A DNA stretch of 64,000 bases from Pseudomonadota bacterium (GCA_026388275.1 JAPLKB010000059.1:28155-92154), one strand, 5' to 3'. Shown: positions 22,846-42,193, numbered from the stretch's first letter. Numbers and translations are program-made. Notes: a model not told the origin generated them from the letters alone.

Positions 22846-22872
22846 GGTGCAGGTATCTATTATGTCGGATTT

Positions 22873-22930: not shown

Positions 22931-22941
22931 AGTATTAGTGA

Positions 22942-23255: not shown

Positions 23256-23293
23256 TCTATGTAGTATATTACTTCGGCATCAGGATAGGCAAT

Positions 23294-24511
23294 ATGTACG
23301 ACAGAATATCCCAAATGGAACCTTTGCTCCCATCCGGAGATACTGGTCTCGAAGATATGGCCCGGGAAATCATCGCACGGTCCGCAGCTTTGGGAGGCCA
23401 ACTGCATCCTTTGAGTCAGAGGCCGATAGCTGAATTGCTGCGGCTCGTTAACAGCTATTACTCTAATCTTATCGAGGGACACAGCACTCATCCTGTTGAC
23501 ATCGAGCGGGCAATGCGGAACGATTATGCTGGTGATCCTGTCAAACGGGACCTGCAAATTGAAAGTCTTGCCCATATCGATTGTCAGCGCAAAATCGAGG
23601 CGCTTCTTCAGGACAAACCTGAACTTAACGTGGCGGGTACGGATTTTCTCTGCATGATACATAGAATTTTTTATAACCGGCTTCCCGAGGAATTGTGCCT
23701 GATGAAAGACGAAGAAAATGGCGAGGTGCTGAAAGTAGCCGGTGGGGAGCTGCGGCAGCGGGAGATTCAGGTTGCCCGGCATGTCGGCCCCCTGGCCCAA
23801 TCTTTGCCGGAGTTTCTGGAACGTTTTGCCGGTTTTTATAAAAGCGGAACCTGCCACGGTATTATGCCCATAATAGCTGCTGCTGCCTCTCATCACCGCC
23901 TTATGTGGATTCACCCCTTCCTCGATGGCAATGGCCGGGTGGCAAGGCTTTACACGGACGCATGTTTCCGGAGACTCCCTCTTCCAGGATACGGTTTGTG
24001 GAATGTGAGCCGGGGACTTGCGCGACGCCGCGATGACTATATGGCGGCGCTGACCTGGGCGGACGCATCGCGACGTAACGATTACGACGGCAGAGGAAAT
24101 CTGTCCAATGAGGGACTGGTGAAGTTTTGCAGATTCTTCTTTGATATTTGTCTGGATCAGATCGATTATATGAATAATATACTGAAGTTGGACGGACTAC
24201 TCGAAAGGATAAAAGGGTATGTACAGTTGCGGGGAGCTAAGGTTGCTCCAGCACCAAAGCCTGGGAATCCTATGCTTAAGACGGAGGCTGCGTACATGCT
24301 GCAGGAAGCCCTTCTGCGAGGCGAGGCAACCAGGGGGGACATGATCCGGGTCTCTGGTATGGCGGAACGGACAGGGAGGATGCTGCTGGGACAGTTGCTG
24401 AATGAAGGGTTACTGGTTTCCGATACACCGAAGGGGTTGGTGAGGATAGCCTTCCCGACCTTTGTGGCAGGGTATCTATTCCCGGACCTCTATCCGGCGC
24501 AGGCTGCATGA
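23294..24511 (+). CDS. fic: Fic family protein (AMPylase-type) with an N-terminal inhibitory-helix motif
   Basis: Active-site motif is HPFLDGNGRVARL (HxFx[D/E]GNGRxxR). The N-terminal YYSNLIEGHST carries the S-x-x-x-E-G auto-inhibition motif. Preferred start is MYDRISQ at 23294, behind AGGATAGG; the ORF-track start at 23243 lies in the promoter. Confidence 0.85.
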   Translation: MYDRISQMEPLLPSGDTGLEDMAREIIARSAALGGQLHPLSQRPIAELLRLVNSYYSNLIEGHSTHPVDIERAMRNDYAGDPVKRDLQIESLAHIDCQRKIEALLQDKPELNVAGTDFLCMIHRIFYNRLPEELCLMKDEENGEVLKVAGGELRQREIQVARHVGPLAQSLPEFLERFAGFYKSGTCHGIMPIIAAAASHHRLMWIHPFLDGNGRVARLYTDACFRRLPLPGYGLWNVSRGLARRRDDYMAALTWADASRRNDYDGRGNLSNEGLVKFCRFFFDICLDQIDYMNNILKLDGLLERIKGYVQLRGAKVAPAPKPGNPMLKTEAAYMLQEALLRGEATRGDMIRVSGMAERTGRMLLGQLLNEGLLVSDTPKGLVRIAFPTFVAGYLFPDLYPAQAA

Positions 24512-24512
24512 T

Positions 24513-24722
24513 ATTTTTGGTTTAATATCAAAAAATGGGGCCGAAAAAGAATTTCTTCGATTGCCACAAGCTGAACAGGACAAGATTCGAAACAAGATAC
24601 TCTCCCTGGAAAATAACCCGAAGCCAGTCGGTTCTAAAAAACTTAGAGAAACAAATTATTTCAGAATCAGATCAGGAGACTATAAAGTAATATATAGCGT
24701 TGATGACACTACCTTTCTTGTT
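24513..24722 (+). pseudogene. RelE/ParE-family toxin remnant lacking a start codon and the C-terminal third
   Basis: ISKNGAEKEFLRLPQAEQDKIRNKILSLENNPKPVGSKKLRETNYFRIRSGDYKVIYSVDDTTFLV follows the RelE/ParE pattern (..SKKAEK.L.KLP...Q.RI...I..L..NP.P.GSKKL.G....YRIR.GDYR.IY.ID...). There is no ATG/GTG/TTG at the 5' end. The expected ..L.IGHR.DVY tail is replaced by sequence antisense to hicA. Confidence 0.55.
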
Positions 24723-24943
24723 TATAGCATTCTATTGAATTCATCAATACCAAGACCTGCGGATCTTATGATTGCCCTAAGCGTTCCTCTGTCAAGTTCC
24801 TTATGGTCAGGTACAACTATCTGCCCAAAAGGATTATCTCTTCTTAAGACAATATGACTTCCCTCTTGTCTCTTAAAATAGAATCCGGCCTTGTTTAGTG
24901 CTTTGACGCATTCACGTCCGGAGATTCTTGGCAGATTACTCAT
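24722..24943 (-). CDS. hicA: HicA mRNA-interferase toxin
   Basis: 73 aa. ISGRECVKALNKAGFYFKRQEGSHIVLRR........VPDHKELDRGTLRAIIRSAGL is the HicA/YcfA signature. It overlaps hicB by 4 nt. Confidence 0.9.
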   Translation of the reverse strand: MSNLPRISGRECVKALNKAGFYFKRQEGSHIVLRRDNPFGQIVVPDHKELDRGTLRAIIRSAGLGIDEFNRML

Positions 24944-25321: not shown

Positions 25322-25632
25322 ATTTGCAATCCCTTGGAAAAAAGAGGAAAATAAATTATTCAACTACAATGTTACGGTTCATAAGGTTGCATTTAGTGCC
25401 ATTTTGCATTGAGGTTTTAAATGTTCTTAACTATTCACTATGTCCCGCATAAAGCGGGATTAAACCGTGCACTAACACTATTCACTGTATTTTCGCTCAG
25501 CACGGGGGTTTTATGGGGTTTGGCTATTCACTATCCACTAACGACTATTCACTGTATTTTAAATTCGGCACGGCATTTCAAACTGGTTGCCGGTGAGGCA
25601 TTGGAGTTTTGAAGGATGTCCCGATTTTCCGT
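25322..25632 (+). repeat. Direct repeat copy 1 (~310 bp) upstream of the RhuM-Doc gene
   Basis: It begins atttgcaatcccttggaaaaaagaggaaaataaattattca. It contains gaggttttaaatgttcttaactattcact, gggggttttatggggtttggctattcactatccactaacgactattcactgtattt and attcggca...ttgaaggat. It is colinear with 26879-27148. Confidence 0.85.
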
Positions 25633-25715: not shown

Positions 25716-26714
25716 ATGACGGACAAATCCAGGGGCGAAATCCTCTTTTATAAAACAGAAGACGGCAGTGCAAAACTGGAAGTCCGGCTTGAACAGGAGA
25801 CGATCTGGCTGGATGCCCATCAAATGGGTGTACTCTTTGAAAGGGATCGTTCCGTTATTGTTAAGCATATTCGCAATATCTACAAGAATGAGGAGTTGTC
25901 GCCCGATTCAACCTGTGCAAAAAATGCACAGGTTGCGGCTGACAATAAAACCCGCATAATGGACCTTTATAACCTGGACATGATTATTTCAGTGGGTTAT
26001 AGAGTCAATTCAAGACGGGGTACCCAATTCCGCATCTGGGCAACTCAGGTTCTCAAGGACCATATTATCAAAGGCTATACAATCAATGAAAAACGCCTGA
26101 AAGAACAAAACGAGCGCCTCCGGGAACTTCAGCAAACCATTGACCTTCTTGGCCGTATTGTGGAAGAACGACAATTGGCCGGACAGGAAGCAGAGGGCCT
26201 TCTCAAAGTGGTAAGCGATTATTCTCTGGCTCTAAGACTCCTTGACGATTATGATTACAGCAGACTTGCCATAGGCGATACCACAGAACAGACATGTTTT
26301 ATAATCACCTATGAAGCGGCACGAAAAGCCGTGGATAGGCTTGCAACAACATCGGGCATTAATGGCAGCCACCTCTTTGGTCGTGAAAAAGACGAATCCT
26401 TCCAAAGTTCTATCGGTGCCATCTATCAAACCTTTGAAGGTAAAGAAGTATATCCCAGTATTGAAGAAAAGGCCGCCCATCTACTATATTTTGTGGTTAA
26501 AAATCATTCTTTTGTCGATGGGAATAAACGGATCGCGGCGTCTCTCTTTCTATGGTTTCTTGATGCCAACGGTATTCTCTACCGACAGGATGGCAGCAAA
26601 AGGATAGGCGATAATGCTCTTGTAGCCCTTACGCTTATGATTGCCGAAAGCAGGCCTGAAGAGAAAGATGTGATGATAAGGGTAATTGTAAACCTTATCA
26701 ATAAGAATAATTGA
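25716..26714 (+). CDS. RhuM-family N-terminal domain fused to a Doc-type Fic domain
   Basis: 332 aa. N-terminus reads ILFYKTEDGSAKLEVRLEQETIWLDAHQMGVLFERDRSVIVKHIRNIY...ISVGYRVNSRRGTQFRIWATQVL (RhuM pattern). The C-terminal HSFVDGNKRIAASLFLWFL is the Doc variant motif HxFxDGNKR. Confidence 0.85.
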   Translation: MTDKSRGEILFYKTEDGSAKLEVRLEQETIWLDAHQMGVLFERDRSVIVKHIRNIYKNEELSPDSTCAKNAQVAADNKTRIMDLYNLDMIISVGYRVNSRRGTQFRIWATQVLKDHIIKGYTINEKRLKEQNERLRELQQTIDLLGRIVEERQLAGQEAEGLLKVVSDYSLALRLLDDYDYSRLAIGDTTEQTCFIITYEAARKAVDRLATTSGINGSHLFGREKDESFQSSIGAIYQTFEGKEVYPSIEEKAAHLLYFVVKNHSFVDGNKRIAASLFLWFLDANGILYRQDGSKRIGDNALVALTLMIAESRPEEKDVMIRVIVNLINKNN

Positions 26715-26878: not shown

Positions 26879-27148
26879 CATTTGCAATCCCTTGAAAAAA
26901 ATAGGAAAATAAATTATTCAAATCAAAGTTTCAGAGCATATGGGGCCATTTGGCAGCGAGGTTTTAAATGTTCTTAACTATTTACTGTTAACTAACGACT
27001 ATTCACTGTTTTTTCACTCGGCGCGGGGGTTTTATGGGGTTTGGCTATTCACTATCCACTAACGACTATTCACTGTATTTCGGATTCGGCAAAGTATTTC
27101 CAATCACTGGCGGGGAGTTATCGGTTGAAGAATACTCCCATTGTCCAG
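26879..27148 (+). repeat. Direct repeat copy 2 (~270 bp) immediately upstream of dcm
   Basis: It begins atttgcaatcccttgaaaaaaataggaaaataaattattca and shares the same internal blocks as 25322-25632. It lacks the TCCCGC hairpin segment present in copy 1. Confidence 0.85.
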
Positions 27149-27179: not shown

Positions 27180-28709
27180 ATGAGCATACCAGTTATTGAC
27201 TTATTTGCCGGTCCGGGAGGCCTCGGCGAGGGATTTTCTTCATTAAGGGATCAGAATGGTAATCCTGTATTCAAGATACATCTCTCTATAGAGAAGGATC
27301 ATTTTGCCCATAAAACACTGGAACTGAGAAGCTTCTTCAGGCAGTTTCCGGACGGAAAAGTACCGGAGGATTATTATCGGTATATCCGCAGGGAAGGCAT
27401 AACAAAAGAGGAATTGTTTAGTCGGAATGAACGTGAGGCCAAAGCCGCGCAAAAAGAAGCATGGCGGTTTGAACTCGCCAAGGAACATGCCTTAGAGATA
27501 GACGAACGGATTAAGGAAGCTTTGGATGGAGAGCAATTATGGGTTCTCATCGGTGGCCCGCCCTGTCAGGCATATTCTATAGTGGGTCGTTCCCGGATGC
27601 GCGGGTCAGACCCATCCAAGTACGAAAATGATCCTCGACACTATCTTTATAAGGAGTATCTCAGGACTCTCACGACACATCGCCCTCCCGTATTCGTGAT
27701 GGAGAATGTAAAAGGGATTCTTTCATCGCGGGTTAATGGCGAGGCTATATTTGAGAAGATACTTCATGACCTGTCTTTAGCCGGACACAATGACAGCCAG
27801 AAAGGGTATCGGTTATATACTCTGAACCCGTATGCACAGAAGGCTCAACCGGGTGATTTTGTAATTCATGCAGAAAAACATAATATCCCGCAAAGGCGGC
27901 ATCGTGTAATTGTTGTCGGGGTTAGAAGTGATCTTGATGTCAAACCGGAACCACTCTACGAAAGACAGACCACCGTAACCGTTGGGGATGCTATTTTAGA
28001 TTTGCCGAGGATCCGTAGTGGCATATCAAAAGAACTCGACAGTTTTGCCGTATGGTCTGGGATATTGGAAGAATTTTCAAAGAACACAGGCAGACTTGAA
28101 CCCATGCCAGAAGATGTGCGGAAAGAAATTGAGATGGGCTGTATCAGCCGGGATCATTTGACTTTAGGGGGAGAGTTTATTCCGATAGAATTAGGCGGGC
28201 ACCCATCGGTCTGGCTCAAGGAATATGCTTGGTGGTTCATGGATGAACGTCTAAAAGGGTATTCTAATCATTCAGCAAGATCTCATATCCGTCAGGATTT
28301 GTTCAGATATTTGTATGCATCCTGCTATGCCAAAGCCAGAAAAACTTTTCCTCGTATAGCTGACTTTCCGTACTACTTGAGACCGGCACATCACAATGTG
28401 GAAGATGCAGCAGCTGGGAAACTTTTTACCGACAGGTTCAGGGTTCAACTGGAAGACAAGCCTTCTACTACGGTTGTATCGCATATAAGCAAGGACGGCC
28501 ATTACTTCATCCATCCAGATACCACGCAATGCAGAAGCCTGACGGTACGAGAGGCAGCGAGGCTGCAAACCTTTCCTGATAATTATTTTTTTGAAGGCAA
28601 CAGAACATCACAATATACGCAGGTTGGAAATGCTGTTCCACCACTACTTGCGAGACAAATAGGTCAGAGTATGGCAGAGCTTCTTGGAATGCTATACAAC
28701 TCGACATAA
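27180..28709 (+). CDS. dcm: DNA (cytosine-5) methyltransferase
   Basis: 509 aa with the full C5-MTase motif set: I DLFAGPGGLGEGF, IV GGPPCQAYS, VI VMENVKGIL, VIII QRRHRVIVVG, IX TVREAARLQTFPDNYFF, X GNAVPPLLA. Confidence 0.95.
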   Translation: MSIPVIDLFAGPGGLGEGFSSLRDQNGNPVFKIHLSIEKDHFAHKTLELRSFFRQFPDGKVPEDYYRYIRREGITKEELFSRNEREAKAAQKEAWRFELAKEHALEIDERIKEALDGEQLWVLIGGPPCQAYSIVGRSRMRGSDPSKYENDPRHYLYKEYLRTLTTHRPPVFVMENVKGILSSRVNGEAIFEKILHDLSLAGHNDSQKGYRLYTLNPYAQKAQPGDFVIHAEKHNIPQRRHRVIVVGVRSDLDVKPEPLYERQTTVTVGDAILDLPRIRSGISKELDSFAVWSGILEEFSKNTGRLEPMPEDVRKEIEMGCISRDHLTLGGEFIPIELGGHPSVWLKEYAWWFMDERLKGYSNHSARSHIRQDLFRYLYASCYAKARKTFPRIADFPYYLRPAHHNVEDAAAGKLFTDRFRVQLEDKPSTTVVSHISKDGHYFIHPDTTQCRSLTVREAARLQTFPDNYFFEGNRTSQYTQVGNAVPPLLARQIGQSMAELLGMLYNST

Positions 28710-28728
28710 CACCGAGGGGGATGGTAAC

Positions 28729-30207
28729 ATGTCCGAATTAGTGATCGCACCATATGCTCCGGCACTAATAGAATCTCTAAGGTCTGCCGGTTATTCGCTT
28801 GAATCAGCCATTGCTGATGTTATGGACAACAGCATATCCGCAGGTGCAAAGCAAATTCATGTGCGATATTCACCACATGATGATCCATATATTTTAATTT
28901 TTGACGATGGCATTGGTATGACACCAAGCGAACTCACTGAAGCTATGAGGCATGGAAACCGTGATCCTGGAGAAGTGAGAGCCGTAAATGATCTTGGTCG
29001 GTTTGGTCTAGGCTTGAAGACTGCTTCTCTTTCACAATGTCGGAAACTCACCGTTATCAGCCTGAAAGGAGGCCAACTGTCAGCACGATGTTGGGACATT
29101 GATCTTATCGCGGCACGCGATGACTGGGTCCTATATGTGCCCGAGGGTGATGAAATTGAACAGTTGCCATTTGTAAAAAGTCTAAAAGCACAAGGTCATG
29201 GTACAATTGTGCTATGGCAGAAGCTTGACCGGGTGGCAGTCGGTGAACGTAATATACAGGATGCACTTTCAGGGAAAATGGATATAGCACGACTACATCT
29301 TGCCTTGGTATTCCACAAATACCTTTCTGGCGAAACAAACCAAAACAAGATTGAGATTCGCATGAATGAGAATTATGTATCTGCATTTGATCCGTTTTTT
29401 TCCAAGCATTCTGCTACGCAAGTTCTTCAAGAAGAACTGATAATGGTTGAAAATCATAATGTTTTAATAAAAGCTTACATTTTGCCTCATATAAGTAAGC
29501 TTTCACCTGATGAATTACGCACTGCTGGCGGAGAGGAAGGTCTTCGACACAATCAAGGGTTCTACGTATATCGCAATCATCGCTTGATTACATGGGGAAC
29601 ATGGTTTCGATTAACGAAACGGGCGGAGCTTTCAAAGCTGGCCCGTGTAAGCGTAAACATCCCGAATGCCCTCGATCATTTGTGGACCCTCGACATAAAA
29701 AAATCAACAGCTTATCCGCCGGAGGAAGTAAGACGAAATCTCAGCCGGATAATTAATAAAATTGTTGGAACAAGTCATAGAGTATACACCTATCGAGGCC
29801 GCATAACCAAGACTGACAACCTAATCCATTCCTGGAACCGCTTCGAAGGCAGAGATGGTATCAGTTACGTTATAAACAGGGAACATCCCATTATGAAAGC
29901 GTTCAGAGCCGGACTGGATGTAGACAACAGAAAAATGCTTGATCTCTTTTTGGATACAATCGAAAGTACTTTTCCGGCAGATGCCTTATATGCAGATATG
30001 GCGTCTGATCGCCCGAGGAAATTTACGGAAATAGGTTTAAAAGAAAGACTAACAGAATTAGCACTTTTTCTTCTTGAAACTGCAGAAGCCGTTGAGGGAG
30101 GTAAAACAAGTCTCTTGGAAGGCCTTGCTTTCATAGACCCTTTTTGTCAATATCCTATAATCACAGAATCCATTTTAAAGGAGCTGTCAAATGCCTACCG
30201 AGAATGA
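28729..30207 (+). CDS. GHKL-superfamily (HATPase_c_3 / MORC-like) ATPase
   Basis: Bergerat-fold boxes are ADVMDNSISAGA (N box), FDDGIGMT (G1) and GRFGLGLKTAS (G2). Preferred start is MSELVIAP at 28729, behind GAGGGGGA and 19 nt after the dcm stop. Confidence 0.85.
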   Translation: MSELVIAPYAPALIESLRSAGYSLESAIADVMDNSISAGAKQIHVRYSPHDDPYILIFDDGIGMTPSELTEAMRHGNRDPGEVRAVNDLGRFGLGLKTASLSQCRKLTVISLKGGQLSARCWDIDLIAARDDWVLYVPEGDEIEQLPFVKSLKAQGHGTIVLWQKLDRVAVGERNIQDALSGKMDIARLHLALVFHKYLSGETNQNKIEIRMNENYVSAFDPFFSKHSATQVLQEELIMVENHNVLIKAYILPHISKLSPDELRTAGGEEGLRHNQGFYVYRNHRLITWGTWFRLTKRAELSKLARVSVNIPNALDHLWTLDIKKSTAYPPEEVRRNLSRIINKIVGTSHRVYTYRGRITKTDNLIHSWNRFEGRDGISYVINREHPIMKAFRAGLDVDNRKMLDLFLDTIESTFPADALYADMASDRPRKFTEIGLKERLTELALFLLETAEAVEGGKTSLLEGLAFIDPFCQYPIITESILKELSNAYRE

Positions 30208-32872
30208 ACAGATGATTGAAAATCTGGTGGTAACCACTATTCGGCCGAATCAATTGCCTACAGAAGAAGATATTCTGAAACTTGTCCAGGGATTTCGGCT
30301 TATGTTTCCTATCTCAGAAGAGGAAGCCAGTACAGTTCTTCGAAAACTTCATACACGACTAAGCATCAACATGGATACTGGTACTGCTATTGTTGAAGAT
30401 CACCAGCCGTGGCTATTTGCACGAAAACCAGAAATTGATCCTTATTACTGGAATCGCTACGAAAAATATCTCATTCAGAGTGTGTGGTCGCCAAGAGTTG
30501 TCAACGCTCTAGATAGAGTCACCGACGAAATACTCGACCTAATGGGCAATCCTATCAAAACAGAATCGTGGTTGCGTAGAGGGTTGGTAGTGGGAGATGT
30601 ACAGTCGGGAAAAACTGCAAACTATACCGCTCTATGCTGCAAAGCAGCAGACGCTGGCTACCGGCTTATTATACTTCTGACGGGTACACTGGAAAATCTT
30701 CGCCGTCAGACACAGGAACGTTTGGATGCAGGTTTCGTAGGACTTGACAGTTCCGGTCTCCTTTCGCAGCAGCGAACAACAAGAGAAGTTGGGGTTGGCA
30801 TACTCAACCGGATCAGGATGGCAGGGGTTTTTACATCTACAAAATATGACTTCAAAAGCGAACTGATGAATCAACTGGGGTTTAAACTGAGTGCTTTTGC
30901 AGAGCCCGTTCTGGTAGTGGTCAAGAAAAACAAAAGAATTCTGGAGAATCTAGAAAATTGGCTTCGTTCATATAATGTTGGTAGTTCAGGAAGAATTGAT
31001 ACACCTATGTTGCTTATTGACGATGAAGCCGATAATGCTTCGATAAATACCAGCCCAAACTCAGATGATCCGACAGCTATCAACGAAAGAATCCGAGCAC
31101 TCTTGCACCTTTTTACGAGGTCAACTTATATCGGCTTTACGGCAACTCCTTTTGCGAATATTTTCATCGACCCTGATTCCGAGAACGATATGGTAGGCGA
31201 TGATCTGTTCCCGAAGCATTTCATCTATGCGTTAGAGGCACCGACGAACTACATTGGTACTCAGTCAATTTTTGGAGAAGAAACACATCTCGACTGCCTC
31301 AGAGAAATAGATGATTCGGACATAATATTTCCATTAAGGCACAGAATCACTTTGATAGTTGAATCACTTCCTGGGAGCCTGATGGAAGCCGTACGCAGCT
31401 TCATCGTTTCTAACGCAATACGCGACCTTAGAGGTGAGGATGGAACTCATCGGTCAATGCTGGTGAATGTAAGCCGATTCACCGGAATACAGGAGCAGGT
31501 GGCACGTTTGTTGGACTATGAATTGCGGGAGATTAACCGAGAAATAAGGAATTACAGCCAACTTGATATCAAAGAAGCGTGTAGATCAGAAGTAATTGCA
31601 GCAATCAGGAACACTTGGGAGAAAGAATTTTCGGATGCCGGATTTGCATGGCTCGATGTTCAACATTCCCTGCTCCAAGCTGCGCTCCCGATCGAGGTAA
31701 GGTCAGTAAACCAGCGTTCAGGAGCGAAGAGCCTTGATTATTCTACATACCGTGAGAAAGGCTTACGAGTTGTAGCCGTCGGAGGAAACAGTCTTTCAAG
31801 GGGGTTGACGCTTGAAGGTCTTTCCATCAGCTATTTTTTGCGGAACTCTCAGATGTACGATACTCTGCTGCAAATGGGTCGTTGGTTCGGTTATCGGGAT
31901 GGATACGCTGATCTTTGTAGAATATGGCTACCGGTGGAAGCCATTCACTGGTACCGATATATAGCACTTGCAACTGAGGAACTGCGCAGCGAAATTTATA
32001 GGATGCAGTCATTAAGTCTTACGCCCAAGGACTTTGGGCTTAAAGTGCGAGCCCACCCAGATTCACTCATTGTTACGGCTCGAAACAAAATGCGCTCTGC
32101 CAGAACAATTGAACGTGTGATTTCTATAAGTGGGCAAAGAATCGAGACACCAAGGCTGTATCAGTCCATTGACATGATCCGGGCGAATGCTACTGCTGCG
32201 GAAAGCCTGTTTACTAAACTGAGAATGGATGGGATTCTCCTCGATAAGTCGCCTTATGGAAACAACATTTGGAGGGCTGTGAACAAGGAACTGATCTGTC
32301 GGTTTCTTAGGCGGTTTGAGAGCCACCCCCTAAATCTTACCTTTCAGAAGGATGACCTTGCGCAGTTTTTGGAAAACACTGATGAAGCGAAGCTTCAGAT
32401 GTGGGACATCGTACTGCCTAACGGTGGCGAAACGGAAGAGATATTCGCTGGAATTGTTTATCATCCTCAGAAACGTAGGATTGAAACCAGAAACGACTCC
32501 AAGATGATTCTTGTGTCAGGCACAAAGGCACGGGTTGGTTCCCGAGGAATCGACAGAGAGGGTATTCCTCAGGATGTAGTGGTTCGTATAGAGGAGGAAT
32601 ACCGGCAGAAGAATCAGAGTGTCCCTGACAAGGCCTTCACGCCAGTGAGATCAAGACCTCTCCTGCTCGTCCACATTGTAAAGCCGGTTCAATATGACAG
32701 AGATTACAATACAGGGGGTAACCCTCTCATTGCGTTAGGCTTGAGTTTTCCGGAGTTCAATGACAGCACTGATGCCCGCAAAGTGCGATACCGAATCAAC
32801 TTAGTGGAATGGAGAAACATGTTTCAGACAGAACTTGATGACGACGTGGAGATGGCTGATGACAACATTTGA
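30191..32872 (+). CDS. Z1-domain protein: P-loop / SF2-helicase-like NTPase
   Basis: 893 aa. Walker A is GDVQSGKT, DEAD-like Walker B is LLIDDEADNAS, and the late helicase-like blocks are LSRGLTLEGLSISYF and LQMGRWFGYRDGYADLCRIW (QxxGRxxR-like). Its start overlaps the GHKL gene end by 17 nt. Confidence 0.8.
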   Translation: MPTENEQMIENLVVTTIRPNQLPTEEDILKLVQGFRLMFPISEEEASTVLRKLHTRLSINMDTGTAIVEDHQPWLFARKPEIDPYYWNRYEKYLIQSVWSPRVVNALDRVTDEILDLMGNPIKTESWLRRGLVVGDVQSGKTANYTALCCKAADAGYRLIILLTGTLENLRRQTQERLDAGFVGLDSSGLLSQQRTTREVGVGILNRIRMAGVFTSTKYDFKSELMNQLGFKLSAFAEPVLVVVKKNKRILENLENWLRSYNVGSSGRIDTPMLLIDDEADNASINTSPNSDDPTAINERIRALLHLFTRSTYIGFTATPFANIFIDPDSENDMVGDDLFPKHFIYALEAPTNYIGTQSIFGEETHLDCLREIDDSDIIFPLRHRITLIVESLPGSLMEAVRSFIVSNAIRDLRGEDGTHRSMLVNVSRFTGIQEQVARLLDYELREINREIRNYSQLDIKEACRSEVIAAIRNTWEKEFSDAGFAWLDVQHSLLQAALPIEVRSVNQRSGAKSLDYSTYREKGLRVVAVGGNSLSRGLTLEGLSISYFLRNSQMYDTLLQMGRWFGYRDGYADLCRIWLPVEAIHWYRYIALATEELRSEIYRMQSLSLTPKDFGLKVRAHPDSLIVTARNKMRSARTIERVISISGQRIETPRLYQSIDMIRANATAAESLFTKLRMDGILLDKSPYGNNIWRAVNKELICRFLRRFESHPLNLTFQKDDLAQFLENTDEAKLQMWDIVLPNGGETEEIFAGIVYHPQKRRIETRNDSKMILVSGTKARVGSRGIDREGIPQDVVVRIEEEYRQKNQSVPDKAFTPVRSRPLLLVHIVKPVQYDRDYNTGGNPLIALGLSFPEFNDSTDARKVRYRINLVEWRNMFQTELDDDVEMADDNI

Positions 32873-33800
32873 GTCACGCTGGGGAAGTTTCGGACCGGGA
32901 AGAGGTTTTCAGCGAGTCGATGAGGACCATCCTCTGGACTTCTATATCGGTGTTGATATTTCGGACCACCGTGTTCTGCTTCTTGTTATGGAAAGTGAGC
33001 TACATGTTCCCATGCAAAGCCAAGCAATTCAAGTTATTTGTAGCCGGAGACAGGACGGCAGATGGGCTCTCATGTTTTCTCTCTTGCGGCCCGATCTGGG
33101 AGTGATCTTTTCGCATCTATGCGAGGATATTGTGGAATCAAGTCGAAAAATATCAGATAAATCGAAAGCTGGTGAGCTTATCTTGAGCCGTTTTGTCCGG
33201 TGGCAACGACTCCTTAGAAGCGGTAGCACGGGTTTACTTGACGAATCAGTGCAGAAGGGACTTCTTGGAGAGTTATTGTTTCTTCGGCAGTTAGCATTGC
33301 CGGTCTATGGTACTATTTCTGCCCTCGAAGGCTGGGTTGGACCCTTGAATGCTGAACAGGATTTTCGATACGTAGACAGGATTTTCGAGATCAAGACAAT
33401 CGGACCGGATGCGCTCACCGTGAGAATCTCTTCCGCTGAACAATTGGATGATACCGACCGACCGATTCAACTGGTTCTGGTAGTGTTAAACCAAACTGAT
33501 CGGACTGATGCCGATGCGTTTTGTCTTTCAAGCATTGTTGCTGAACTACGGCAGGAACTGCTGTTCGATCCAGCAGCGTCAGCTCTCTTTGGTGATCGGC
33601 TTTTGTCAATCGGATACTTTGATAGAGACGAGTATAGCACACTATTTTTCAGATTCGACCGTTTTCGGTACTTTGCGATCCGTGAGGGGTTTCCAAGGAT
33701 AGTACGGTCGCGGCTACCGTTAGCAGTTAGCAGCGTGAGATATGAACTATATATTCAGGCTTGTCTGCCTTATGAGATCGTGGGCACTAGGGAGGAATAA
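32859..33800 (+). CDS. PD-(D/E)XK-motif nuclease-like protein
   Basis: ~313 aa. GLLGELLFLRQLA, then EQDFRYVDRIFEIKT, gives an E ... D ... E-x-K arrangement. The start (32859 or 32835) overlaps the Z1 gene end. The stop lies 1 nt before the AIPR start. Confidence 0.65.
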   Translation: MTTFESRWGSFGPGRGFQRVDEDHPLDFYIGVDISDHRVLLLVMESELHVPMQSQAIQVICSRRQDGRWALMFSLLRPDLGVIFSHLCEDIVESSRKISDKSKAGELILSRFVRWQRLLRSGSTGLLDESVQKGLLGELLFLRQLALPVYGTISALEGWVGPLNAEQDFRYVDRIFEIKTIGPDALTVRISSAEQLDDTDRPIQLVLVVLNQTDRTDADAFCLSSIVAELRQELLFDPAASALFGDRLLSIGYFDRDEYSTLFFRFDRFRYFAIREGFPRIVRSRLPLAVSSVRYELYIQACLPYEIVGTREE

Positions 33801-33801
33801 T

Positions 33802-35886
33802 ATGGAGCTTGAAGATTACCGCAAAGATTTCCTTGAATCTGTCAAGTCACGCGCGGCTGCCGACGGAGACCTGACTCAAGCGGCGTTCGTGACGGTTGTG
33901 TCTGAGAGACTCATAGAGGCAGAGGAATTACAGGATTTTGAACCCTGTTATTATCCAGGAAGCGGGATTCGAGATCGCAGGTTGAAGCTTCGCGTAGATG
34001 GGTATTCTTACGATGATACCGATGGTTCTTACAACCTTATTATTGCTGACTATCGGGGTAATGATGATATTGAGACGCTAACGCAGACCGATGCGACCAC
34101 TCAGTTTACAAGACTTCGATCATTTCTTTTGGAGGCGGTTTCCGGTATGCTGCATCCGGTACTGGAAAACAGTTCTCCGGCACATGCTCTTGCCGTCAAA
34201 CTCTATGGACATCCTGATCTTATCACGCGTTTTCGCCTCTTCCTCGTAACCGACGCAGTTCTCAGTGCTCGTGTCAAAGATTGGCGCGAGGAATCTCTTA
34301 ACGACAAACCTATCGAGTTCCATATATGGGACATTGCACGTTTCCACAGGGTTTCCGAATCCATGACAGGAAGGGATGAGCTTACCGTAGATTTTCGGGA
34401 GTTCGCGGATGATGGTGTTCCCTGTCTGGAAGCGAGCCAGACTGACGGAGAGTATAAGGCCTACCTATGCGTTATGCCGGGAAGTATTCTTGCCGACCTC
34501 TACGACAGATTCGGTAGCCGGCTACTTGAAAATAACGTTCGTTCATTTCTGGGGATACGTGGAACAAAGAGCGTGAACAGCGGTATCCGTAACACTATAC
34601 TGAAGCAACCTACTATGTTTTTTGCATATAACAATGGTATCGCGGCAACTGCCAGCGAAGCAGAAGTTGTTTATTCCGGGAACAGTCTGTATCTGGCGCA
34701 GGCAAAGGACCTTCAAATCGTGAACGGCGGACAGACAACTGCGTCACTGACCAATACAAGGCGCAAAGACAAAGCTGCACTTGATGGTATATTCATACAA
34801 ATGAAGCTCTCTGTTATCGAGCCCAATCGAGCAGAGGAGGTAATTCCGCTCATCTCCCGTTTTGCAAACAGTCAGAACAAGGTGAGTGATGCAGATTTCT
34901 TCTCTAATCACCCATTCCACATAAGAATAGAGACGCATTCGAGGCGTATATGGGCACCGGCCGTGGATGGCGCTCAGCATGAGACGCACTGGTTTTATGA
35001 GCGGGCCAGAGGCCAATTTCTTAACGAACAGGCCAAACTGTCGCCATCTGAAAAACGCCGGTTCCTACAACAAAATCCACGTTCCCAATTGCTTACAAAA
35101 ACGGATCTTGCCAAGTATGAGAATACTTGGAGAGGCATGCCGCATATTGTCAGTCTCGGGGCGCAAAAAAACTTCAAATATTTCGCTGAGTGGATTGATG
35201 AAAAATGGAAAGCTTCAGATGTTGATTTCAGCGAAGAATATTTCAAAAATATTGTTGCCAAGGCTATTCTGTGGCAGTACACGGAACGAATGATCTCCGG
35301 GCAGACATGGTATCAGGGCGGATACCGGGCAAATATTGTTGCCTACACTATTGCCAAGCTTTCAAACAGTATTGAGGTCGAGGGCAAGGGGCAGGCCCTT
35401 GATTTGCGAGCCATCTGGACAAAGCAGCAGCTATCGGATGCAATCCTGAAGCAACTTCAGTTGATCGCCGAGGCCATGTCAAAAGTGATTGTAGATCCTG
35501 ATAGACCTGTGGAAAATGTTACAGAATGGTGCAAGAACAAGCTTTGTTTTGAAAGAGCGGAGAAGTTACAAATACCGCTGTTGCCTGGATTCTATAAGGA
35601 ATTGGTCGACAAAGATGAACTGAGGGTTGCAGCAAAAGATGGAAAGTCCCTGCAGAAGACCGACAAAGGGATCTCTGCTCAAATGGAGGTTCTGGAATTA
35701 GGTGCCGTGTACTGGTTGCAAGTAAAGGACTGGAGCGAAAGCAACAAACTGTTGACTCCAGAGGAAACAAAACTGGTGGCCCTTGCTTCAAGGATACCAG
35801 CAAATATTCCCAACTACTACCAGAGCCAAAGACTTCTTGAAATACGGCAAAAAATCGAGATGGAAGGATTTATGGCATCGTCGTAA
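33802..35886 (+). CDS. AIPR (abortive-infection phage-resistance) family protein
   Basis: ~694 aa. NNVRSFLGIRGTKSVNSGIRNTI, FFAYNNGIAATAS and LQIVNGGQTTASL are the blocks I associate with the AIPR family. Start is MELEDYRK, behind GGAGGA. Confidence 0.75.
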   Translation: MELEDYRKDFLESVKSRAAADGDLTQAAFVTVVSERLIEAEELQDFEPCYYPGSGIRDRRLKLRVDGYSYDDTDGSYNLIIADYRGNDDIETLTQTDATTQFTRLRSFLLEAVSGMLHPVLENSSPAHALAVKLYGHPDLITRFRLFLVTDAVLSARVKDWREESLNDKPIEFHIWDIARFHRVSESMTGRDELTVDFREFADDGVPCLEASQTDGEYKAYLCVMPGSILADLYDRFGSRLLENNVRSFLGIRGTKSVNSGIRNTILKQPTMFFAYNNGIAATASEAEVVYSGNSLYLAQAKDLQIVNGGQTTASLTNTRRKDKAALDGIFIQMKLSVIEPNRAEEVIPLISRFANSQNKVSDADFFSNHPFHIRIETHSRRIWAPAVDGAQHETHWFYERARGQFLNEQAKLSPSEKRRFLQQNPRSQLLTKTDLAKYENTWRGMPHIVSLGAQKNFKYFAEWIDEKWKASDVDFSEEYFKNIVAKAILWQYTERMISGQTWYQGGYRANIVAYTIAKLSNSIEVEGKGQALDLRAIWTKQQLSDAILKQLQLIAEAMSKVIVDPDRPVENVTEWCKNKLCFERAEKLQIPLLPGFYKELVDKDELRVAAKDGKSLQKTDKGISAQMEVLELGAVYWLQVKDWSESNKLLTPEETKLVALASRIPANIPNYYQSQRLLEIRQKIEMEGFMASS

Positions 35887-35901
35887 TTAAACATAATGTT
35901 T

Positions 35902-36393
35902 CTATGGTTTTCTATCCCCATACTTAGATCGTGTTTCTGCTACCATGAGCATATCTTCATTATTTGCTGTTTGTAACAAAGGATGCAATATACTTTCCTG
36001 AAGTTTTAAGGCAAGGTTTTCAAGTGATTTTTCCGTCTCACACTCCCAAACTATGATGACGTTCCATCCAAGAAGCTCAAGGTCTGACTGTTTTTGTCTA
36101 TCTCGCACAATATTTCCGAAAAATTTCTTCTCCCAGAATTCAGTATTGGTCTTGGGTGTCGTGGCATTTTTACAGCCGGAGTGACGGTGCCAGAAACAAC
36201 CATGTACAAAAATTACTGTCTTATATTTCGGAAGCATGATATCGGGCTTCCCCGGCAGGTCCTTGCAATGTAATCTGTAACGATACCCCATTAAATGAAG
36301 TAAAGATCTGACAACTTTCTCCGGCTTGGTGTCTCCGGATTTTATCCGGCTCATATTCCAACTTCTTTTTTCACGTGTCAGACTGTCAACCAT
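35902..36393 (-). CDS. vsr: Very-short-patch repair endonuclease Vsr
   Basis: DTKPEKVVRSLLHLMGYRYRLH, PGKPDIMLPKYKTVIFVHGCFWHRHSGC and LLGWNVIIVWECE are present. It converges on the AIPR gene with a 15-nt gap. Start is taken at MVDSLTREKRSWNMSRI. Confidence 0.9.
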   Translation of the reverse strand: MVDSLTREKRSWNMSRIKSGDTKPEKVVRSLLHLMGYRYRLHCKDLPGKPDIMLPKYKTVIFVHGCFWHRHSGCKNATTPKTNTEFWEKKFFGNIVRDRQKQSDLELLGWNVIIVWECETEKSLENLALKLQESILHPLLQTANNEDMLMVAETRSKYGDRKP

Positions 36394-36585
36394 ATGCTTT
36401 CCCTGAAGGCAAAATATAGCATAAGTTTTTTTGGAGAACAAAGAGTATTGTACATCGAGTTCGCACACCGGCGGGGGAATTGTGTTCTATCGATTCGCAG
36501 ATGGCGCGCCTGCGCTTGAAGTCAATCTGAAGAGGGATGTGAGTTGGGAGAAGTGGCAACTACCAAAGAATCCTCGGTAGTTCAG

Positions 36586-36705
36586 GATGAAGGCGGACGA
36601 AAAATCCGACAATTCCAACATCCCAAAAGCCCCTTCGGGAGATTGGTTGACACTGTGTCAACCAATCAGCTAATCCGCCGTAAAACTAATACAGACGATG
36701 CTTTG
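36586..36705 (+). repeat. Hairpin repeat unit A1 (perfect 10-bp stem ttggttgaca/tgtcaaccaa at 36643-36665)
   Basis: gatgaaggcggacgaaaaatccgacaa..cccaaaagccccttcgggagaTTGGTTGACActgTGTCAACCAAtcagctaatccgccgtaaaactaatacagacgatgctttg. It is near-identical to 39623-39742 and related to 38821-38921. Confidence 0.85.
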
Positions 36706-36821
36706 TGGATAGGAAGGAACAAACAGGGAATTATGAAAACAAGGCCCCAAAGCGAAGCGCAATTCAATTGTATATTTCGAACAAATAAGAGGGAAGAGTA
36801 TGTAAAAATCTTATACTTTCT

Positions 36822-36890
36822 GTGTCCACCAAAACCCTCCTCAGACAATTTGCTGTAACAGTTACAGCAAATCCTCAAATCGCCGCAAAG
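36822..36890 (+). repeat. Hairpin repeat unit B (12-bp palindrome atttgctgtaac/gttacagcaaat at 36848-36872)
   Basis: It has the same flank grammar (cc-rich left flank; right flank tcc.caaatcgccgcaaa) as the other units, but a different, still perfectly complementary, stem sequence. Confidence 0.7.
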
Positions 36891-36939
36891 CTTAGATAGA
36901 AGCCATTTAGCACATGGCTGTCCCGCAAACTCGACTTTG

Positions 36940-37212
36940 TTCTTTTTCCTCTCGCCCACTCCCTGCGGTCGTTCGAGCACGCAGAGATCGCAGAGTTGAA
37001 ATAACTTTTGCCGGAATTGAGAGAATGATCCATTCCGGCAAAATTGCATACCCTGCGGGTGAATTAATATATTTATCTTTCTCTGTGCACTCTGCGAGAG
37101 ATATCTTTTTGATCTTTACATCCCGCCTCCCGAAGACCCATTCAAGCAATTTGCCGACACTGTGTCGGCAAATCCATAAATCGCCGCAAAACCAATACAG
37201 ACAGTGCTTTAC
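36940..37212 (+). repeat. Long repeat L1, ending in hairpin unit C1 (atttgccgaca-ctg-tgtcggcaaat at 37149-37173)
   Basis: ttcctctcgcccactccctgcggtcgttcgagcacgcagagatcgcagagttgaaataa ... tctttctctgtgcac ... catcccgcctcccgaagacccattcaagca-hairpin-ccataaatcgccgcaaaaccaatacagac. It is colinear with 38486-38700, except for an extra ~60 bp (37010-37070) that itself contains the ttgccggaat/attccggcaa hairpin. Confidence 0.85.
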
Positions 37213-37266
37213 TGGATATGGCAGAAAAAACACTGGTTTAATGCAGCTAATGAACAAAAATATATA

Positions 37267-37295
37267 TTGAGCTTTTCATTATGGTAAAATAATAT
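37267..37295 (+). promoter_or_regulatory. Sigma-70-type promoter inside the repeat tail, facing the zeta-like cassette
   Basis: TTGAGC (37267-37272), a 17-nt spacer, TAATAT (37290-37295). The homologous tail at 39798-39827 reads TTAAAC-18-CAATAT in front of the orphan antitoxin. Confidence 0.5.
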
Positions 37296-37345: not shown

Positions 37346-37483
37346 ATGTTTAGTAATACAGAAGGGTTAGCCCTTTACAAAGAATATTTTAACAGCCAAC
37401 TTGCTAAAATGGCTGAATACTTACGAGAAAAAATAATGTGGCACGGGTTATCTAAAATAAGAAGTAGGGAAACTGAAAGGTGA
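37346..37483 (+). CDS. Candidate 45-aa ORF whose stop overlaps the GTG start of the zeta-like gene
   Basis: MFSNTEGLALYKEYFNSQLAKMAEYLREKIMWHGLSKIRSRETER. Its TGA (37481-37483) overlaps the GTG at 37480 (GTGA). It has no clear Shine-Dalgarno sequence and is below the ORF-track cutoff. Confidence 0.3.
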   Translation: MFSNTEGLALYKEYFNSQLAKMAEYLREKIMWHGLSKIRSRETER

Positions 37484-38073
37484 CATTATCAATGGACAAG
37501 CCAAAACTCTATATTATTGCCGGACCGAACGGTTCCGGAAAAACAACCTTCGTTCAACGCTTCCTCCCCTATTATGCGGACTGTACCAATTTTGTAAACG
37601 CAGACTTAATAGCATCAGGTCTGTCTCCGTTTTTACCTGAAATTGCCGCCATTAAGGCAGGCAAGCTTATGATAGATGAGATAGATATATTCAGAAGGCG
37701 CCGGGCAGATTTTGCCTTTGAGACAACATTGTCGGGCAAAACATATGTGAAATTACTGAAGGAAATGAAGATGGACGGATATGAGGTTCATATTTTCTTT
37801 TTGTGGCTGCGCAATATTGACCTTGCATTAAAAAGAGTAGCTGAACGGGTAGCCATGGGAGGACACAATGTTCCTGTTGGGACTGTGCGCCGTAGGTTTG
37901 ACAGAGGCCTCCATAACCTGTTTAATTTATATTGTCATTTTGCTGACTCATGGGTTATTTTTGATAATTCAGAATTATTGCCCTGTGTGGTTGCAAAAGA
38001 AACGGCTGGAGTACTGACAGTGATTGATGGTAAACTATTTGAAGAAATAAGGGCAAAGGTGGAGACGCCATGA
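37480..38073 (+). CDS. Zeta-toxin-like P-loop kinase / AAA-family ATPase
   Basis: 197 aa. Walker A is YIIAGPNGSGKTTF. The following FVNADLIA ... FAFETTLSG ... FFLWL...AL.RVAERVAMGGHNVP pattern is typical of zeta/COG4185-type proteins. An alternative ATG start is at 37492. Confidence 0.75.
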   Translation: MTLSMDKPKLYIIAGPNGSGKTTFVQRFLPYYADCTNFVNADLIASGLSPFLPEIAAIKAGKLMIDEIDIFRRRRADFAFETTLSGKTYVKLLKEMKMDGYEVHIFFLWLRNIDLALKRVAERVAMGGHNVPVGTVRRRFDRGLHNLFNLYCHFADSWVIFDNSELLPCVVAKETAGVLTVIDGKLFEEIRAKVETP

Positions 38074-38267: not shown

Positions 38268-38485
38268 AACAAAGATTATCAGAAAAGACAAAGAACCCGT
38301 GTGGTTGTCCTGGATAAAGATAGACTCAATGATGTTTGTCAATCCGTCAAGTTGAGTTCACATACCTGGAGTGCCATAAGATCATCTTGCGATATAATCC
38401 AATTTCCACCACAATTGTTGGGTATAGAAAGATAGTGTGGTGGAAAACATAAAAAAAGAATAGATAAATGATACAGACAATCAAT

Positions 38486-38700
38486 TCTTCTTTCTCTCGC
38501 CCACTCCCTGCGGTTGTTCGAGCACGCAGAGATCGCAGAGTTGAAATAATATTTTTGTCTTTCTCTGTGCACTCAGCGGACTCTGCGGGAGATATGCTTT
38601 TGATCTTTAATTCCCGCCTCCCAAAGACCCATTCAAGCAATTTGCCGACACTGTGTCGGCAAATCCATAAATCGCCGTAAAACCAAGACAGATAATGTTC
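38486..38700 (+). repeat. Long repeat L2, ending in hairpin unit C2 (38640-38664)
   Basis: ttctttctctcgcccactccctgcggttgttcgagcacgcagagatcgcagagttgaaataa ... ttcccgcctcccaaagacccattcaagca-ATTTGCCGACActgTGTCGGCAAAT-ccataaatcgccgtaaaaccaagacag. It is the same order and orientation as L1. Confidence 0.85.
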
Positions 38701-38820
38701 TGCGAATAAGAAGGAACAAAAAGGAAATTATAAAAACGAGGCACCAAAGCGAAGCATAAGTCAATTGTATATTCCGAACAAAAAAACGAGAAAGGAGTGT
38801 AAAAGTTTTCGGAATCTGTC

Positions 38821-38921
38821 ACATCCCGCCATCCCAAAAACCCCATCGGGAGATTCGTTGACACTGTGTCAACCAAGCAGCTAATCCGCTGTAAAACCAA
38901 TACAGAAGCCATTCAGCACAT
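38821..38921 (+). repeat. Hairpin repeat unit A2 (stem 38854-38876 with one mismatch)
   Basis: acatcccgccatcccaaaaaccccatcgggagaTTCGTTGACActgTGTCAACCAAgcagctaatccgctgtaaaaccaatacagaagccattcagcaca. The tail agaagccatt.agcaca also follows unit B at 36897-36915. Confidence 0.8.
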
Positions 38922-38953: not shown

Positions 38954-39235
38954 TCATTTTTTTCCGTATAACTCGTCGTGGCTTCCCACATCGAGGAATA
39001 TAATTTCCTTTTCTGTTATCATAAGCGTCAGGGTAATACGATATTTGTATGTAAGGCTGGCAGCCCAGAGACCTTCGAGCTTCCCGGTAAGAGGATGCAA
39101 TTGAAGAGCCGGTTGAAAGGGGTCTTCTGACAGGTCTGTGACAAGTTTTGTAAAGCGCCCTTTGAGATCCGGGTGCTTTTTAAAGAACTTCCCTGCCTGT
39201 CGAAGAAACTGATCTGTTGCCTGAATAACATACAT
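38954..39235 (-). CDS. RelE/ParE-superfamily toxin
   Basis: 93 aa. FKKHPDLKGRFTKLVTDLSEDPF...LHPLTGKLEGLWAASLTYKYRITL....IIFLDVGSHDELY fits the RelE/YafQ-type pattern. Confidence 0.8.
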   Translation of the reverse strand: MYVIQATDQFLRQAGKFFKKHPDLKGRFTKLVTDLSEDPFQPALQLHPLTGKLEGLWAASLTYKYRITLTLMITEKEIIFLDVGSHDELYGKK

Positions 39236-39237
39236 GG

Positions 39238-39504
39238 TCAGTCTTCCTTTTCAATTGCTTTGAGCAGATCTTCAGCGTCTTTGAATGTTTGTATGCGTTT
39301 GGCCTTCACGTCCTGTAGTGAAGCGCGGACCCGTGCGACATATGCGGAACTCTGCTCTTCAACGAGTTCGCTATAGAGCTTTTCCGAAAGAATTACATAT
39401 TGAGGCTTATTGTTCTTAATAACATATACCGGGCCTTCTTCGATCTTTTCGTCCACCGCTTTCATGCCCCGTCTCTTTATCTCCTGTGCTGCAACAGTAT
39501 TCAT
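39238..39504 (-). CDS. Phd/YefM-family antitoxin
   Basis: MNTVAAQEIKRRGMKAVDEKIEEGPVYVIKNNKPQYVILSEKLYSELVE. The start sits behind CAGGAGG and the stop lies 2 nt before the toxin start. Confidence 0.8.
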   Translation of the reverse strand: MNTVAAQEIKRRGMKAVDEKIEEGPVYVIKNNKPQYVILSEKLYSELVEEQSSAYVARVRASLQDVKAKRIQTFKDAEDLLKAIEKED

Positions 39505-39622
39505 GACGATACCTCCTGAAGTACTTAATATGGTGCTTAAATTATAGTATATATCAGTCCTGTTTGCAACCAACTTTTCACGATGTGAGGATGTGAGGGG
39601 TCAGGCAATGACTCAGAACAAA

Positions 39623-39742
39623 GATGAAGGCGGACGAAAAATCAGACAATCCCGCCGCTCCAAAAGCCCCTTCGGGAGATTGGTTGACACTGTGTCAACC
39701 AATCAGCTAATCCGCTGTAGAACCAATACAGACAATGCTTTG
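39623..39742 (+). repeat. Hairpin repeat unit A3 (stem 39680-39702)
   Basis: It is near-identical to A1 along its full length. It is followed (39743-39825) by the same tail that follows L1 (ctgg.tatg.cagaaaa.acactggttt.atgcagctaatgaacaaaa). Confidence 0.85.
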
Positions 39743-39855
39743 CTGGCTATGACAGAAAATACACTGGTTTGATGCAGCTAATGAACAAAATTATGCATTA
39801 AACTTTCTTATTATGATAAAACAATATGCAGCCAGGCAGGAGCAATGGAGGTACA

Positions 39856-42185: not shown

Positions 42186-42193
42186 CCCTTCAG

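Follow-up and report, generated by a model that had tools for sequence, protein, structure and literature searches.

The window analysed here, a stretch of 64,000 nucleotides (nt) from a Pseudomonadota bacterium (GCA_026388275.1, JAPLKB010000059.1:28155-92154), carries six intact genes between positions 27180 and 36393. They encode a C5 cytosine methyltransferase (MTase), a MORC-type GHKL ATPase, a DEAD-Z1 motor, a DUF4420 nuclease, an AIPR protein and, in convergent orientation, the endonuclease Vsr. We propose, with a probability of about 0.6, that this cassette is a horizontally acquired anti-phage and anti-plasmid unit of the Mza family, which would work as an ATP-dependent restriction machine and spare host DNA marked by 5-methylcytosine (5mC). 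The six genes and the Pfam matches of their products are:

27180..28709, plus strand: Dcm, C5 cytosine DNA methyltransferase, 509 amino acids (aa); DNA_methylase 7e-46
28729..30207, plus strand: MORC-type GHKL ATPase, MzaB-like, 492 aa; HATPase_c_3 4e-32
30191..32872, plus strand: DEAD-Z1 superfamily-2 helicase-like motor, MzaC-like, 893 aa; Z1 8e-79
32859..33800, plus strand: DUF4420 PD-(D/E)XK nuclease, MzaD-like, 313 aa; DUF4420 5e-63
33802..35886, plus strand: AIPR protein, MzaE-like, 694 aa; AIPR_N 4e-41 and AIPR 2e-97
35902..36393, minus strand: Vsr very-short-patch repair endonuclease, 163 aa; Vsr 1e-31

The first five genes are packed like an operon, as an earlier reading made from the DNA alone (the sequence-only reading) had claimed, and the reading frames and junctions listed there were recovered. 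The dcm stop codon (28709) is followed by a 19-nt gap with the ribosome-binding site GAGGGGGA and then by the ATG of the GHKL gene at 28729. The Z1 gene starts at ATG 30191 with AAGGAG ahead of it, overlapping the GHKL stop (30207) by 17 nt; the DUF4420 gene overlaps the Z1 gene by 14 nt when read from ATG 32859 and by 38 nt when its longest open reading frame (ORF), from TTG 32835, is taken; and the AIPR gene (ATG 33802, preceded by GGGAGGA) lies 1 nt behind the DUF4420 stop (33800). The stop codons of AIPR (35886) and vsr (35902) converge at a distance of 15 nt. The far end of vsr had been placed at a GTG at 36468; its most likely start is the ATG at 36393, and the 163 aa that result are also those of the public gene call. 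An identical 9.6-kb contig with public gene calls encodes the same six products (509, 492, 893, 313, 694 and 163 aa). The deposited proteins MCX5807222-4 belong to a metagenome-assembled genome, 'Proteobacteria bacterium', and carry generic annotation only. No small ORF resembling a C protein was found upstream of dcm, promoter and terminator scans gave counts at chance level, Rfam returned no match within the window and the tRNA scan of the window found none.

All six products fell into the predicted Pfam families with strong scores, and the motifs that had been pointed out in Dcm and in the four proteins encoded downstream of it were all found. Those of Dcm are FAGPGG, PPCQ, ENV, QRRHR, LQTFP and GNAVP. 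Dcm reaches 137.5 bits against TIGR00675 (cutoff 100.65) and Vsr 143.9 bits against TIGR00632 (cutoff 97.85), so that both partners of a Dcm-Vsr pair exceed the curated TIGRFAM cutoffs. The best PADLOC model for Dcm is DrmMII, the C5-MTase of DISARM type (2e-96). With approximately 118 aa between motif I and PCQ the enzyme belongs to a 'long' class, and Pfam searches at E <= 10 with its insertion and its target-recognition domain gave nothing new.

The GHKL protein contains the motifs DNSISAG, DDGIGM and GRFGLGLKT and, at residue 277, the sequence GFYVYRNHRLI, which conforms to the MORC-specific S5-domain motif GhXhhpXXRhl. This motif occurs in 72 of 72 GHKL proteins (the window and 71 loci) as well as in E. 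coli MzaB, and by the S5-motif criterion the protein thus classifies, as judged from its sequence, as a bona fide MORC. PADLOC assigned it to MzaB (9e-83); the sole match of a sequence search in the Protein Data Bank (PDB) was human MORC4 (7k7t), at a weak 1.4e-4.

In the Z1 motor the motifs GDVQSGKT, DDEAD and DTLLQMGRWFGYR are intact. The Walker A motif GDVQSGKT, DDEAD and DTLLQMGRWFG are invariant in 22 homologues, the last of them (D557-TLLQMGRWFG-567) representing the Z1-domain motif DThhQXuRhFG of the superfamily-2 helicase and including Q561-M-G-R564, a motif VI of the QxxR form that DEAD-Z1 motors typically have (PMC5861437). The PADLOC matches are MzaC (2e-141) and Helicase_II (4e-40), and the N-terminal residues 1–125 and C-terminal residues 630–893 have no family match.

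DUF4420 is the fastest-evolving core protein, with a mean identity of 29%; E138, D168 and E177-x-K179, the residues of the E-D-ExK nuclease motif, are invariant in 65 homologues. PADLOC identified it as MzaD (4.5e-23). Its AlphaFold2 model (predicted local distance difference test, pLDDT, 91; predicted template modelling score, pTM, 0.79) had no match in the PDB by Foldseek at E <= 0.001; a resemblance of the N-terminal domain to type III secretion chaperones was considered and set aside as weak and without significance.

In the AIPR protein, AIPR_N and the AIPR core are followed by approximately 100 further aa at the C-terminus. The positions of its motif QIVNGGQTT are each 93–100% conserved in 59 sequences, and PADLOC returned MzaE (8e-81) and AbiU (7e-23). 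No PDB match at E <= 0.001 was obtained by Foldseek with its AlphaFold2 model (pLDDT 85, pTM 0.51), the best, a ParB N-terminal domain, being meaningless at E = 5.5. The HEPN or ParB-like domain of published claims was rejected for this protein, as the motif Rx4-6H is absent and hidden Markov models gave no support (Pfam, E up to 10). Searches of PDB sequences with Z1, AIPR and DUF4420 found no match, and Pfam searches at E <= 10 with the terminal regions of Z1, the DUF4420 N-terminus, the GHKL C-terminus and each third of AIPR again gave nothing new.

For comparison with Mza, the canonical E. coli mzaABCDE was taken from the DNA printed in the supplement of a preprint and then located in annotated genomes; of 5,426 complete E. 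coli genomes, 56 carry it. By BLASTP the GHKL protein is 34.7% identical to MzaB (484 residues aligned), Z1 36.0% to MzaC (903 aligned), DUF4420 28.7% to MzaD (254 aligned) and AIPR 30.5% to MzaE (600 aligned, AIPR residues 1–584). The NCBIfam scores lie below the equivalog cutoffs, at 341 of 850 bits for MzaB, 556 of 1500 for MzaC, 118 of 420 for MzaD and 363 of 1050 for MzaE. The four effector proteins are hence homologues, not equivalogs, of MzaBCDE, and together the PADLOC and NCBIfam matches support the reading of the locus as a defence system. Gene order B-C-D-E, overlapping junctions and domain content are the same in both systems, as are the MORC motif and the nuclease residues; D168 and P279 of DUF4420 align with D187 and P297 of MzaD, both of which were mutated in a 2022 preprint (bioRxiv 10.1101/2022.06.16.496414). 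The approximately 100 C-terminal residues of the window's AIPR protein are not present in MzaE. The major difference is upstream, where E. coli encodes MzaA, a 683-aa protein of the sigma-70 family, ahead of MzaB; in the window, C5-MTase and Vsr take its place. No match to MzaA was found in the cassette, and the only one in the window (53687–54271) overlaps a 245-aa ORF (53564–54301), probably that of the flagellar sigma factor FliA. Among 80 related loci MzaA gave a single match, to a 123-aa ORF in the locus L015 (1.9e-12). Since MzaA is missing from the Dcm-linked loci, it and Dcm seem to stand in for each other. At 33–40% identity, E. coli MzaC is equally distant from all Dcm-linked Z1 proteins sampled and therefore appears as a sister branch. 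A plasmid collection contained Z1 homologues, and canonical Mza was not found in it.

The sequence-only reading knew of no phage challenge or biochemistry for such genes. Here it needs correction, since the homologous MzaABCDE is named and is cited, via PMC9523054, as a validated system of Gao et al. 2020. According to the preprint (10.1101/2022.06.16.496414), E. coli mzaABCDE protects 10^3- to 10^4-fold against T4 containing unmodified cytosine or hydroxymethylcytosine and approximately 10-fold against wild-type T4 with glucosylated hydroxymethylcytosine, without growth arrest at any multiplicity of infection; purified MzaD cleaves DNA in vitro, and its mutants D187A and P297A are impaired. 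The earlier reading had also named a match to a mechanistically characterised system as a reason to abandon its proposal. A named and validated match exists, which by that rule refutes the proposal in part; it is only partly characterised and, as given above, the window proteins score below the NCBI equivalog thresholds. Two further observations concern E. coli loci. In strain AR_0085 (L082) two genes lie beyond mzaA (16844–18392), one called 'restriction endonuclease' and the other encoding an additional PD-(D/E)XK nuclease, and in strain 214-4 mzaB is interrupted by IS421.

A census of gene neighbourhoods, of the kind that the sequence-only reading had suggested, was run on the 80 best related loci (37–63% Z1 identity), collected by iterated profile searches from Pseudomonadota, Bacillota, Chloroflexota, Acidobacteriota, Nitrospirota, Planctomycetota, Saccharibacteria and other phyla. 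A complete core, defined as GHKL, Z1, DUF4420 and AIPR, is present in 73 of the 80, and linkage of Dcm or Vsr to it was scored within 9 kb. In all 73 the core genes follow the order GHKL, Z1, DUF4420, AIPR, typically with overlapping junctions, and the proteins co-evolve tightly (Spearman rho against Z1 of 0.71–0.79). A C5-MTase is found near 71 of the 73 complete cores, the two exceptions being at or near contig ends, with a median gap of 45 nt between dcm and core; Vsr is found near 54 of them, usually beside dcm. The recurrence of this gene set at 71 of the 73 complete loci, which come from unrelated phyla, puts the clustering far beyond chance and bears out the claim that dcm and vsr are part of the unit. 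The position of dcm and vsr on either side of the effector genes, to which the sequence-only reading had drawn attention, is real in the window; among relatives it is one of many permutations, with dcm upstream or downstream of the core and in either orientation. The layout dcm, core, convergent vsr is rare in the census and is kept in the close relatives of the window. Methylation by a linked enzyme has been determined in one related case, an operon of Prevotella intermedia with AIPR and Z1 genes, the MTase of which produces G(m5C)WGC according to bisulfite sequencing (PMC5608340).

The family extends well beyond the census. Searches with Z1 and with AIPR each gave at least 8,000 candidates. 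When 185,579 species-representative genomes were scanned with two peptides, at least 600 stretches matched, and 592 of the matches listed encode a Z1 relative. The DUF4420 profile matched 8,520 clusters at 50% identity (1.84 billion proteins).

Evidence for mobility comes from a relative with 78% Z1 identity (L084), in which the same six genes in the same layout lie in an unrelated region resembling a conjugative element. The cassette therefore moves as one unit, and its presence in this second genomic context is further evidence that dcm and vsr belong to it. Next to the cassette in L084, as noted at 17978–20065, are genes for a transposase of the IS3 family and a LexA-like/S24 peptidase protein and a CBASS-like pair of SMODS and SLATT genes, with a TraG/TrwB-type coupling protein gene upstream; these neighbours suggest that the cassette rides a mobile element alongside other defence genes. 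In the window, the cassette has a guanine-plus-cytosine (GC) content of 0.43–0.48 against 0.35–0.38 in the flanking flagellar genes. It is part of an island of approximately 22 kb (about 22900–45100, GC 0.41–0.48) that splits a flagellar and chemotaxis region (GC about 0.36) between flgE (21250–22845) and fliM (45196–46188); the flagellar genes recognised around it are fliF, fliI, flgD and flgE at the one end and fliM, fliP, fliR and flhB at the other.

The island has further contents. Just upstream of the cassette there are two candidate defence genes, at 23243–24511 and 25716–26714, the first encoding a Fic-domain protein (PADLOC SoFic, 1.8e-23) and the second a RhuM-Fic fusion (PADLOC candidate PDC-S23, 2.3e-139). 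Toxin-antitoxin-like genes are located at 24462–24857, 37480–38073 and 38954–39573; they comprise an ORF similar to ParE that overlaps the Fic gene, a P-loop protein resembling zeta toxins and, adjoining an unassigned 93-aa ORF, a Phd/YefM-like antitoxin whose match is weak (23.6 bits, Pfam cutoff 29.8). The island also encodes dus, pirin, an EF-hand protein and a nitroreductase. Two sets of intergenic repeats with 69–95% identity (25322–25582 and 26880–27103; 36586–37275, 38485–38916, 39623–39806 and 42190–42249) flank each gene cassette, namely RhuM-Fic, dcm to vsr, the zeta-like gene, the Phd-like pair and Dus-Pirin. The second set contains perfect palindromes of 25–27 nt, e.g. TTGGTTGACACTGTGTCAACCAATC and ATTTGCCGACACTGTGTCGGCAAAT. 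These repeats could be elements resembling repetitive extragenic palindromes or miniature inverted-repeat transposable elements, or cassette boundaries; a reading as integron attC sites found no support, no integrase being annotated among the window ORFs examined and no canonical core sites being present in the aligned repeats. Terminal inverted repeats bracketing the six-gene unit alone were not found. At the left edge of the island, directly after flgE (22870–22933), there are three tandem copies of a 21-nt unit similar to TTTCAGAAAGTTTTGGAATGG.

The cooperation of the six products may be pictured as follows. Dcm would write 5mC on host DNA. On unmarked DNA the MORC-type ATPase may act as an ATP-gated dimeric clamp or matchmaker, and this clamp and the DEAD-Z1 translocase would spend ATP to load, deliver or activate the DUF4420 nuclease, which would cut the foreign DNA. 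AIPR would be an obligatory fourth core subunit, serving either as a sensor or regulator or as a second effector. Vsr would have a housekeeping function, repairing the T:G mismatches that arise from deamination of 5mC made by the cassette itself and so limiting the mutagenic cost. In this scheme we infer that methylation protects, in which order the steps take place and what each ATPase contributes, whereas phage defence, nuclease activity and the lack of growth arrest are expected by analogy with the published work on E. coli Mza, and translocation by analogy with CglI. The near-obligate linkage of Dcm and the co-mobility of the cassette lend support to gating by methylation, and further, indirect support comes from the intact catalytic motifs and from the active MTase of the P. 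intermedia operon.

Several observations weigh against such a gate. Two classes of Dcm, with approximately 65 aa and approximately 117 aa between motif I and PCQ, interchange across the Z1 tree, and co-evolution of Dcm with the core is looser (Spearman rho 0.50) than that of the core proteins among themselves; this pattern, together with the variable placement of dcm, is awkward for a classical pair of cognate restriction and modification enzymes. Dcm and Vsr of the window have no counterpart in E. coli mza. MzaABCDE of E. coli and Salmonella is validated in the absence of an MTase, so that the core can defend with no MTase of its own, which weakens the case for a methylation gate; taken with the free exchange of Dcm classes, it points to a core independent of one particular cognate methylase. 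No sequence- or methylation-reading domain was identified in any core protein by Foldseek, by Pfam searches with sub-regions or by covariation. The last of these compared, by partial correlation, how the target-recognition domain of Dcm and stretches of 40 residues in each core protein diverge; the resulting signal was spread across conserved segments of the Z1 motor and is therefore probably phylogenetic. Finally, no experiment on the window locus or on any Dcm-linked member was found in the literature.

On this basis the core might well be thought independent of methylation altogether and responsive to another infection cue, Dcm and Vsr being a co-mobilised orphan module that acts as an epigenetic regulator, selfish passenger or anti-restriction cover. 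The MTase-less E. coli system fits this picture, for which the preprint reports defence with toxicity unmentioned, and so do the shifting position and orientation of the Dcm module, its two interchangeable classes and a REBASE-style annotation which calls the linked P. intermedia MTase an 'orphan'. A mere passenger, however, would not be expected from the retention of a C5-MTase near 71 of 73 complete cores at a median distance of 45 nt, with exceptions only at or near contig ends, from the 19-nt gap of the window with its ribosome-binding site placed for coupled expression, or from the movement of the whole six-gene unit between genomic contexts, and we consider this explanation unlikely. Less probable still is a two-layered immunity in which restriction is backed by suicide, AIPR acting as an abortive-infection toxin similar to AbiU. 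The AIPR core does match the PADLOC model AbiU at 7e-23, and AbiU1/AIPR has been described as an abortive-infection family often linked to restriction-modification systems (PMC3506569); yet E. coli MzaABCDE works without growth arrest at any multiplicity of infection, and the HEPN RNase motif is missing from the protein, with no significant HEPN or ParB-like match in Pfam or Foldseek.

An inverted logic, in which a modification-dependent nuclease of Type IV character attacks modified phage DNA and Dcm and Vsr are unrelated neighbours, seems very improbable. DEAD-Z1 and GHKL modules do occur in varied restriction contexts (PMC2292703), but a cassette that is moved as a unit with its own intact C5-MTase would kill its host by attacking 5mC, and T4 whose cytosine is unmodified is restricted by E. 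coli Mza at least as strongly as modified T4. We give just as little credence to a role outside defence, be it in DNA repair, of which MutL, Vsr and helicase are common themes, or in a mobile element, DUF4420 being labelled 'putative transposase' in a survey table of 2012 (PMC3424549). A validated role in phage defence has been reported for the homologous system, the island holds the SoFic-like and PDC-S23 defence candidates and toxin-antitoxin genes, and there are no terminal inverted repeats around this unit alone.

Returning to restriction gated by 5mC, one reading that accommodates linkage and exchange of Dcm alike is that the mark itself is read and not a recognition sequence shared by MTase and core. 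We accordingly raise, as a speculation that is doubtful at present, the possibility that the Dcm-linked Mza clade constitutes a distinct class of ATP-dependent restriction, in which 5mC, in whichever context the resident Dcm places it, would identify DNA as self to a scanning MORC clamp and DEAD-Z1 motor, and nuclease and MTase would need no recognition site in common. This would explain why Dcm classes swap beside a rigid core and why a reader domain was not found. As a corollary, the MTase-less MzaABCDE of enterobacteria might rely on the chromosomal Dcm of the host. If this speculation on the Dcm-linked clade is true, prokaryotic MORC ATPases would for the first time be tied mechanistically to DNA methylation, a link from which eukaryotic MORC function was proposed in 2008 to have arisen.

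The pairing of a bacterial MORC ATPase with a cytosine methylase is thought to foreshadow eukaryotic MORC biology. In the literature and the PDB no mechanistic or structural study was found for Mza or for the Dcm-linked form, which gives the locus some experimental value; the family is very common. The Dcm-linked form appears never to have been tried against phage, and the window locus, compact at 9.3 kb and with intact motifs, is a reasonable candidate for cloning.

Among known systems the DEAD-Z1 motor is best understood from CglI, where ATP-driven translocation along double-stranded DNA activates the partner nuclease (PMC5861437). CglI and NgoAVII (R2H2) share with the window this type of motor, with its unusual QxxR motif VI (PMC5861437), and the association with an MTase; by tblastn there was also a weak match to an unannotated sequence of Neisseria gonorrhoeae. 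Their R subunit with PLD and B3 domains, in contrast, is absent from the six genes, the nuclease being DUF4420 here, and the window encodes two extra obligatory subunits, the MORC GHKL protein and AIPR. In sequence, the C-terminal region of Z1 resembles none of the solved structures, the C-terminal domain of H.CglI (6F1S) included. The control of a PD-(D/E)XK nuclease by a GHKL ATPase, both being needed for defence, is known from the GHKL-nuclease Shedu (VcSduA/paraMORC3; PMC12137116), which differs in being a single fused polypeptide with a DUF4263 nuclease and in having no motor, AIPR or methylase. DISARM class 2 is likewise a multi-gene, ATPase-containing defence built around a C5 methyltransferase, and the window Dcm scores best on its DrmMII; homologues of DrmA, DrmB, DrmC and DrmE are absent here, however, and the effectors are unrelated. 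The classical dcm-vsr of E. coli type pairs a C5-MTase with Vsr for deamination repair in the same manner. Unlike there, the two genes do not overlap in the sub-clade of the window and four effector genes lie between them, while in most related loci they are adjacent.

The closest counterparts have been in print for some time, although the sequence-only reading treated the system as unnamed. Iyer, Abhiman and Aravind (2008) described MORC/paraMORC GHKL proteins with a superfamily-2 helicase carrying DThhQXuRhFG in its C-terminal domain and a novel protein of restriction-endonuclease fold with E-D-ExK, often accompanied by a cytosine methylase, Vsr and AIPR (PMC2292703). Miller, Stern and Burstein (2022) described a putative defence system with a core of Z1, PD-(D/E)XK nuclease and C5-MTase, the 'type II' of which adds AIPR and MORC; they remarked on its likeness to mzaABCDE, and neither PADLOC nor DefenseFinder called their system (PMC9523054). 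These descriptions are computational and leave the mechanism without test, and they show no substantive difference from the window. The S5 motif, the Z1 helicase, the E-D-ExK protein and the linked methylase, AIPR and Vsr, which define the MORC restriction-modification operon 'type 3' of 2008 and the 'type II' of 2022, are all found here, in exactly that gene content, with the E-D-ExK protein under its later name DUF4420. The locus is thus a further member of the family catalogued in 2008 and 2022, whose gene identities the sequence-only reading had right and whose function it had broadly right.

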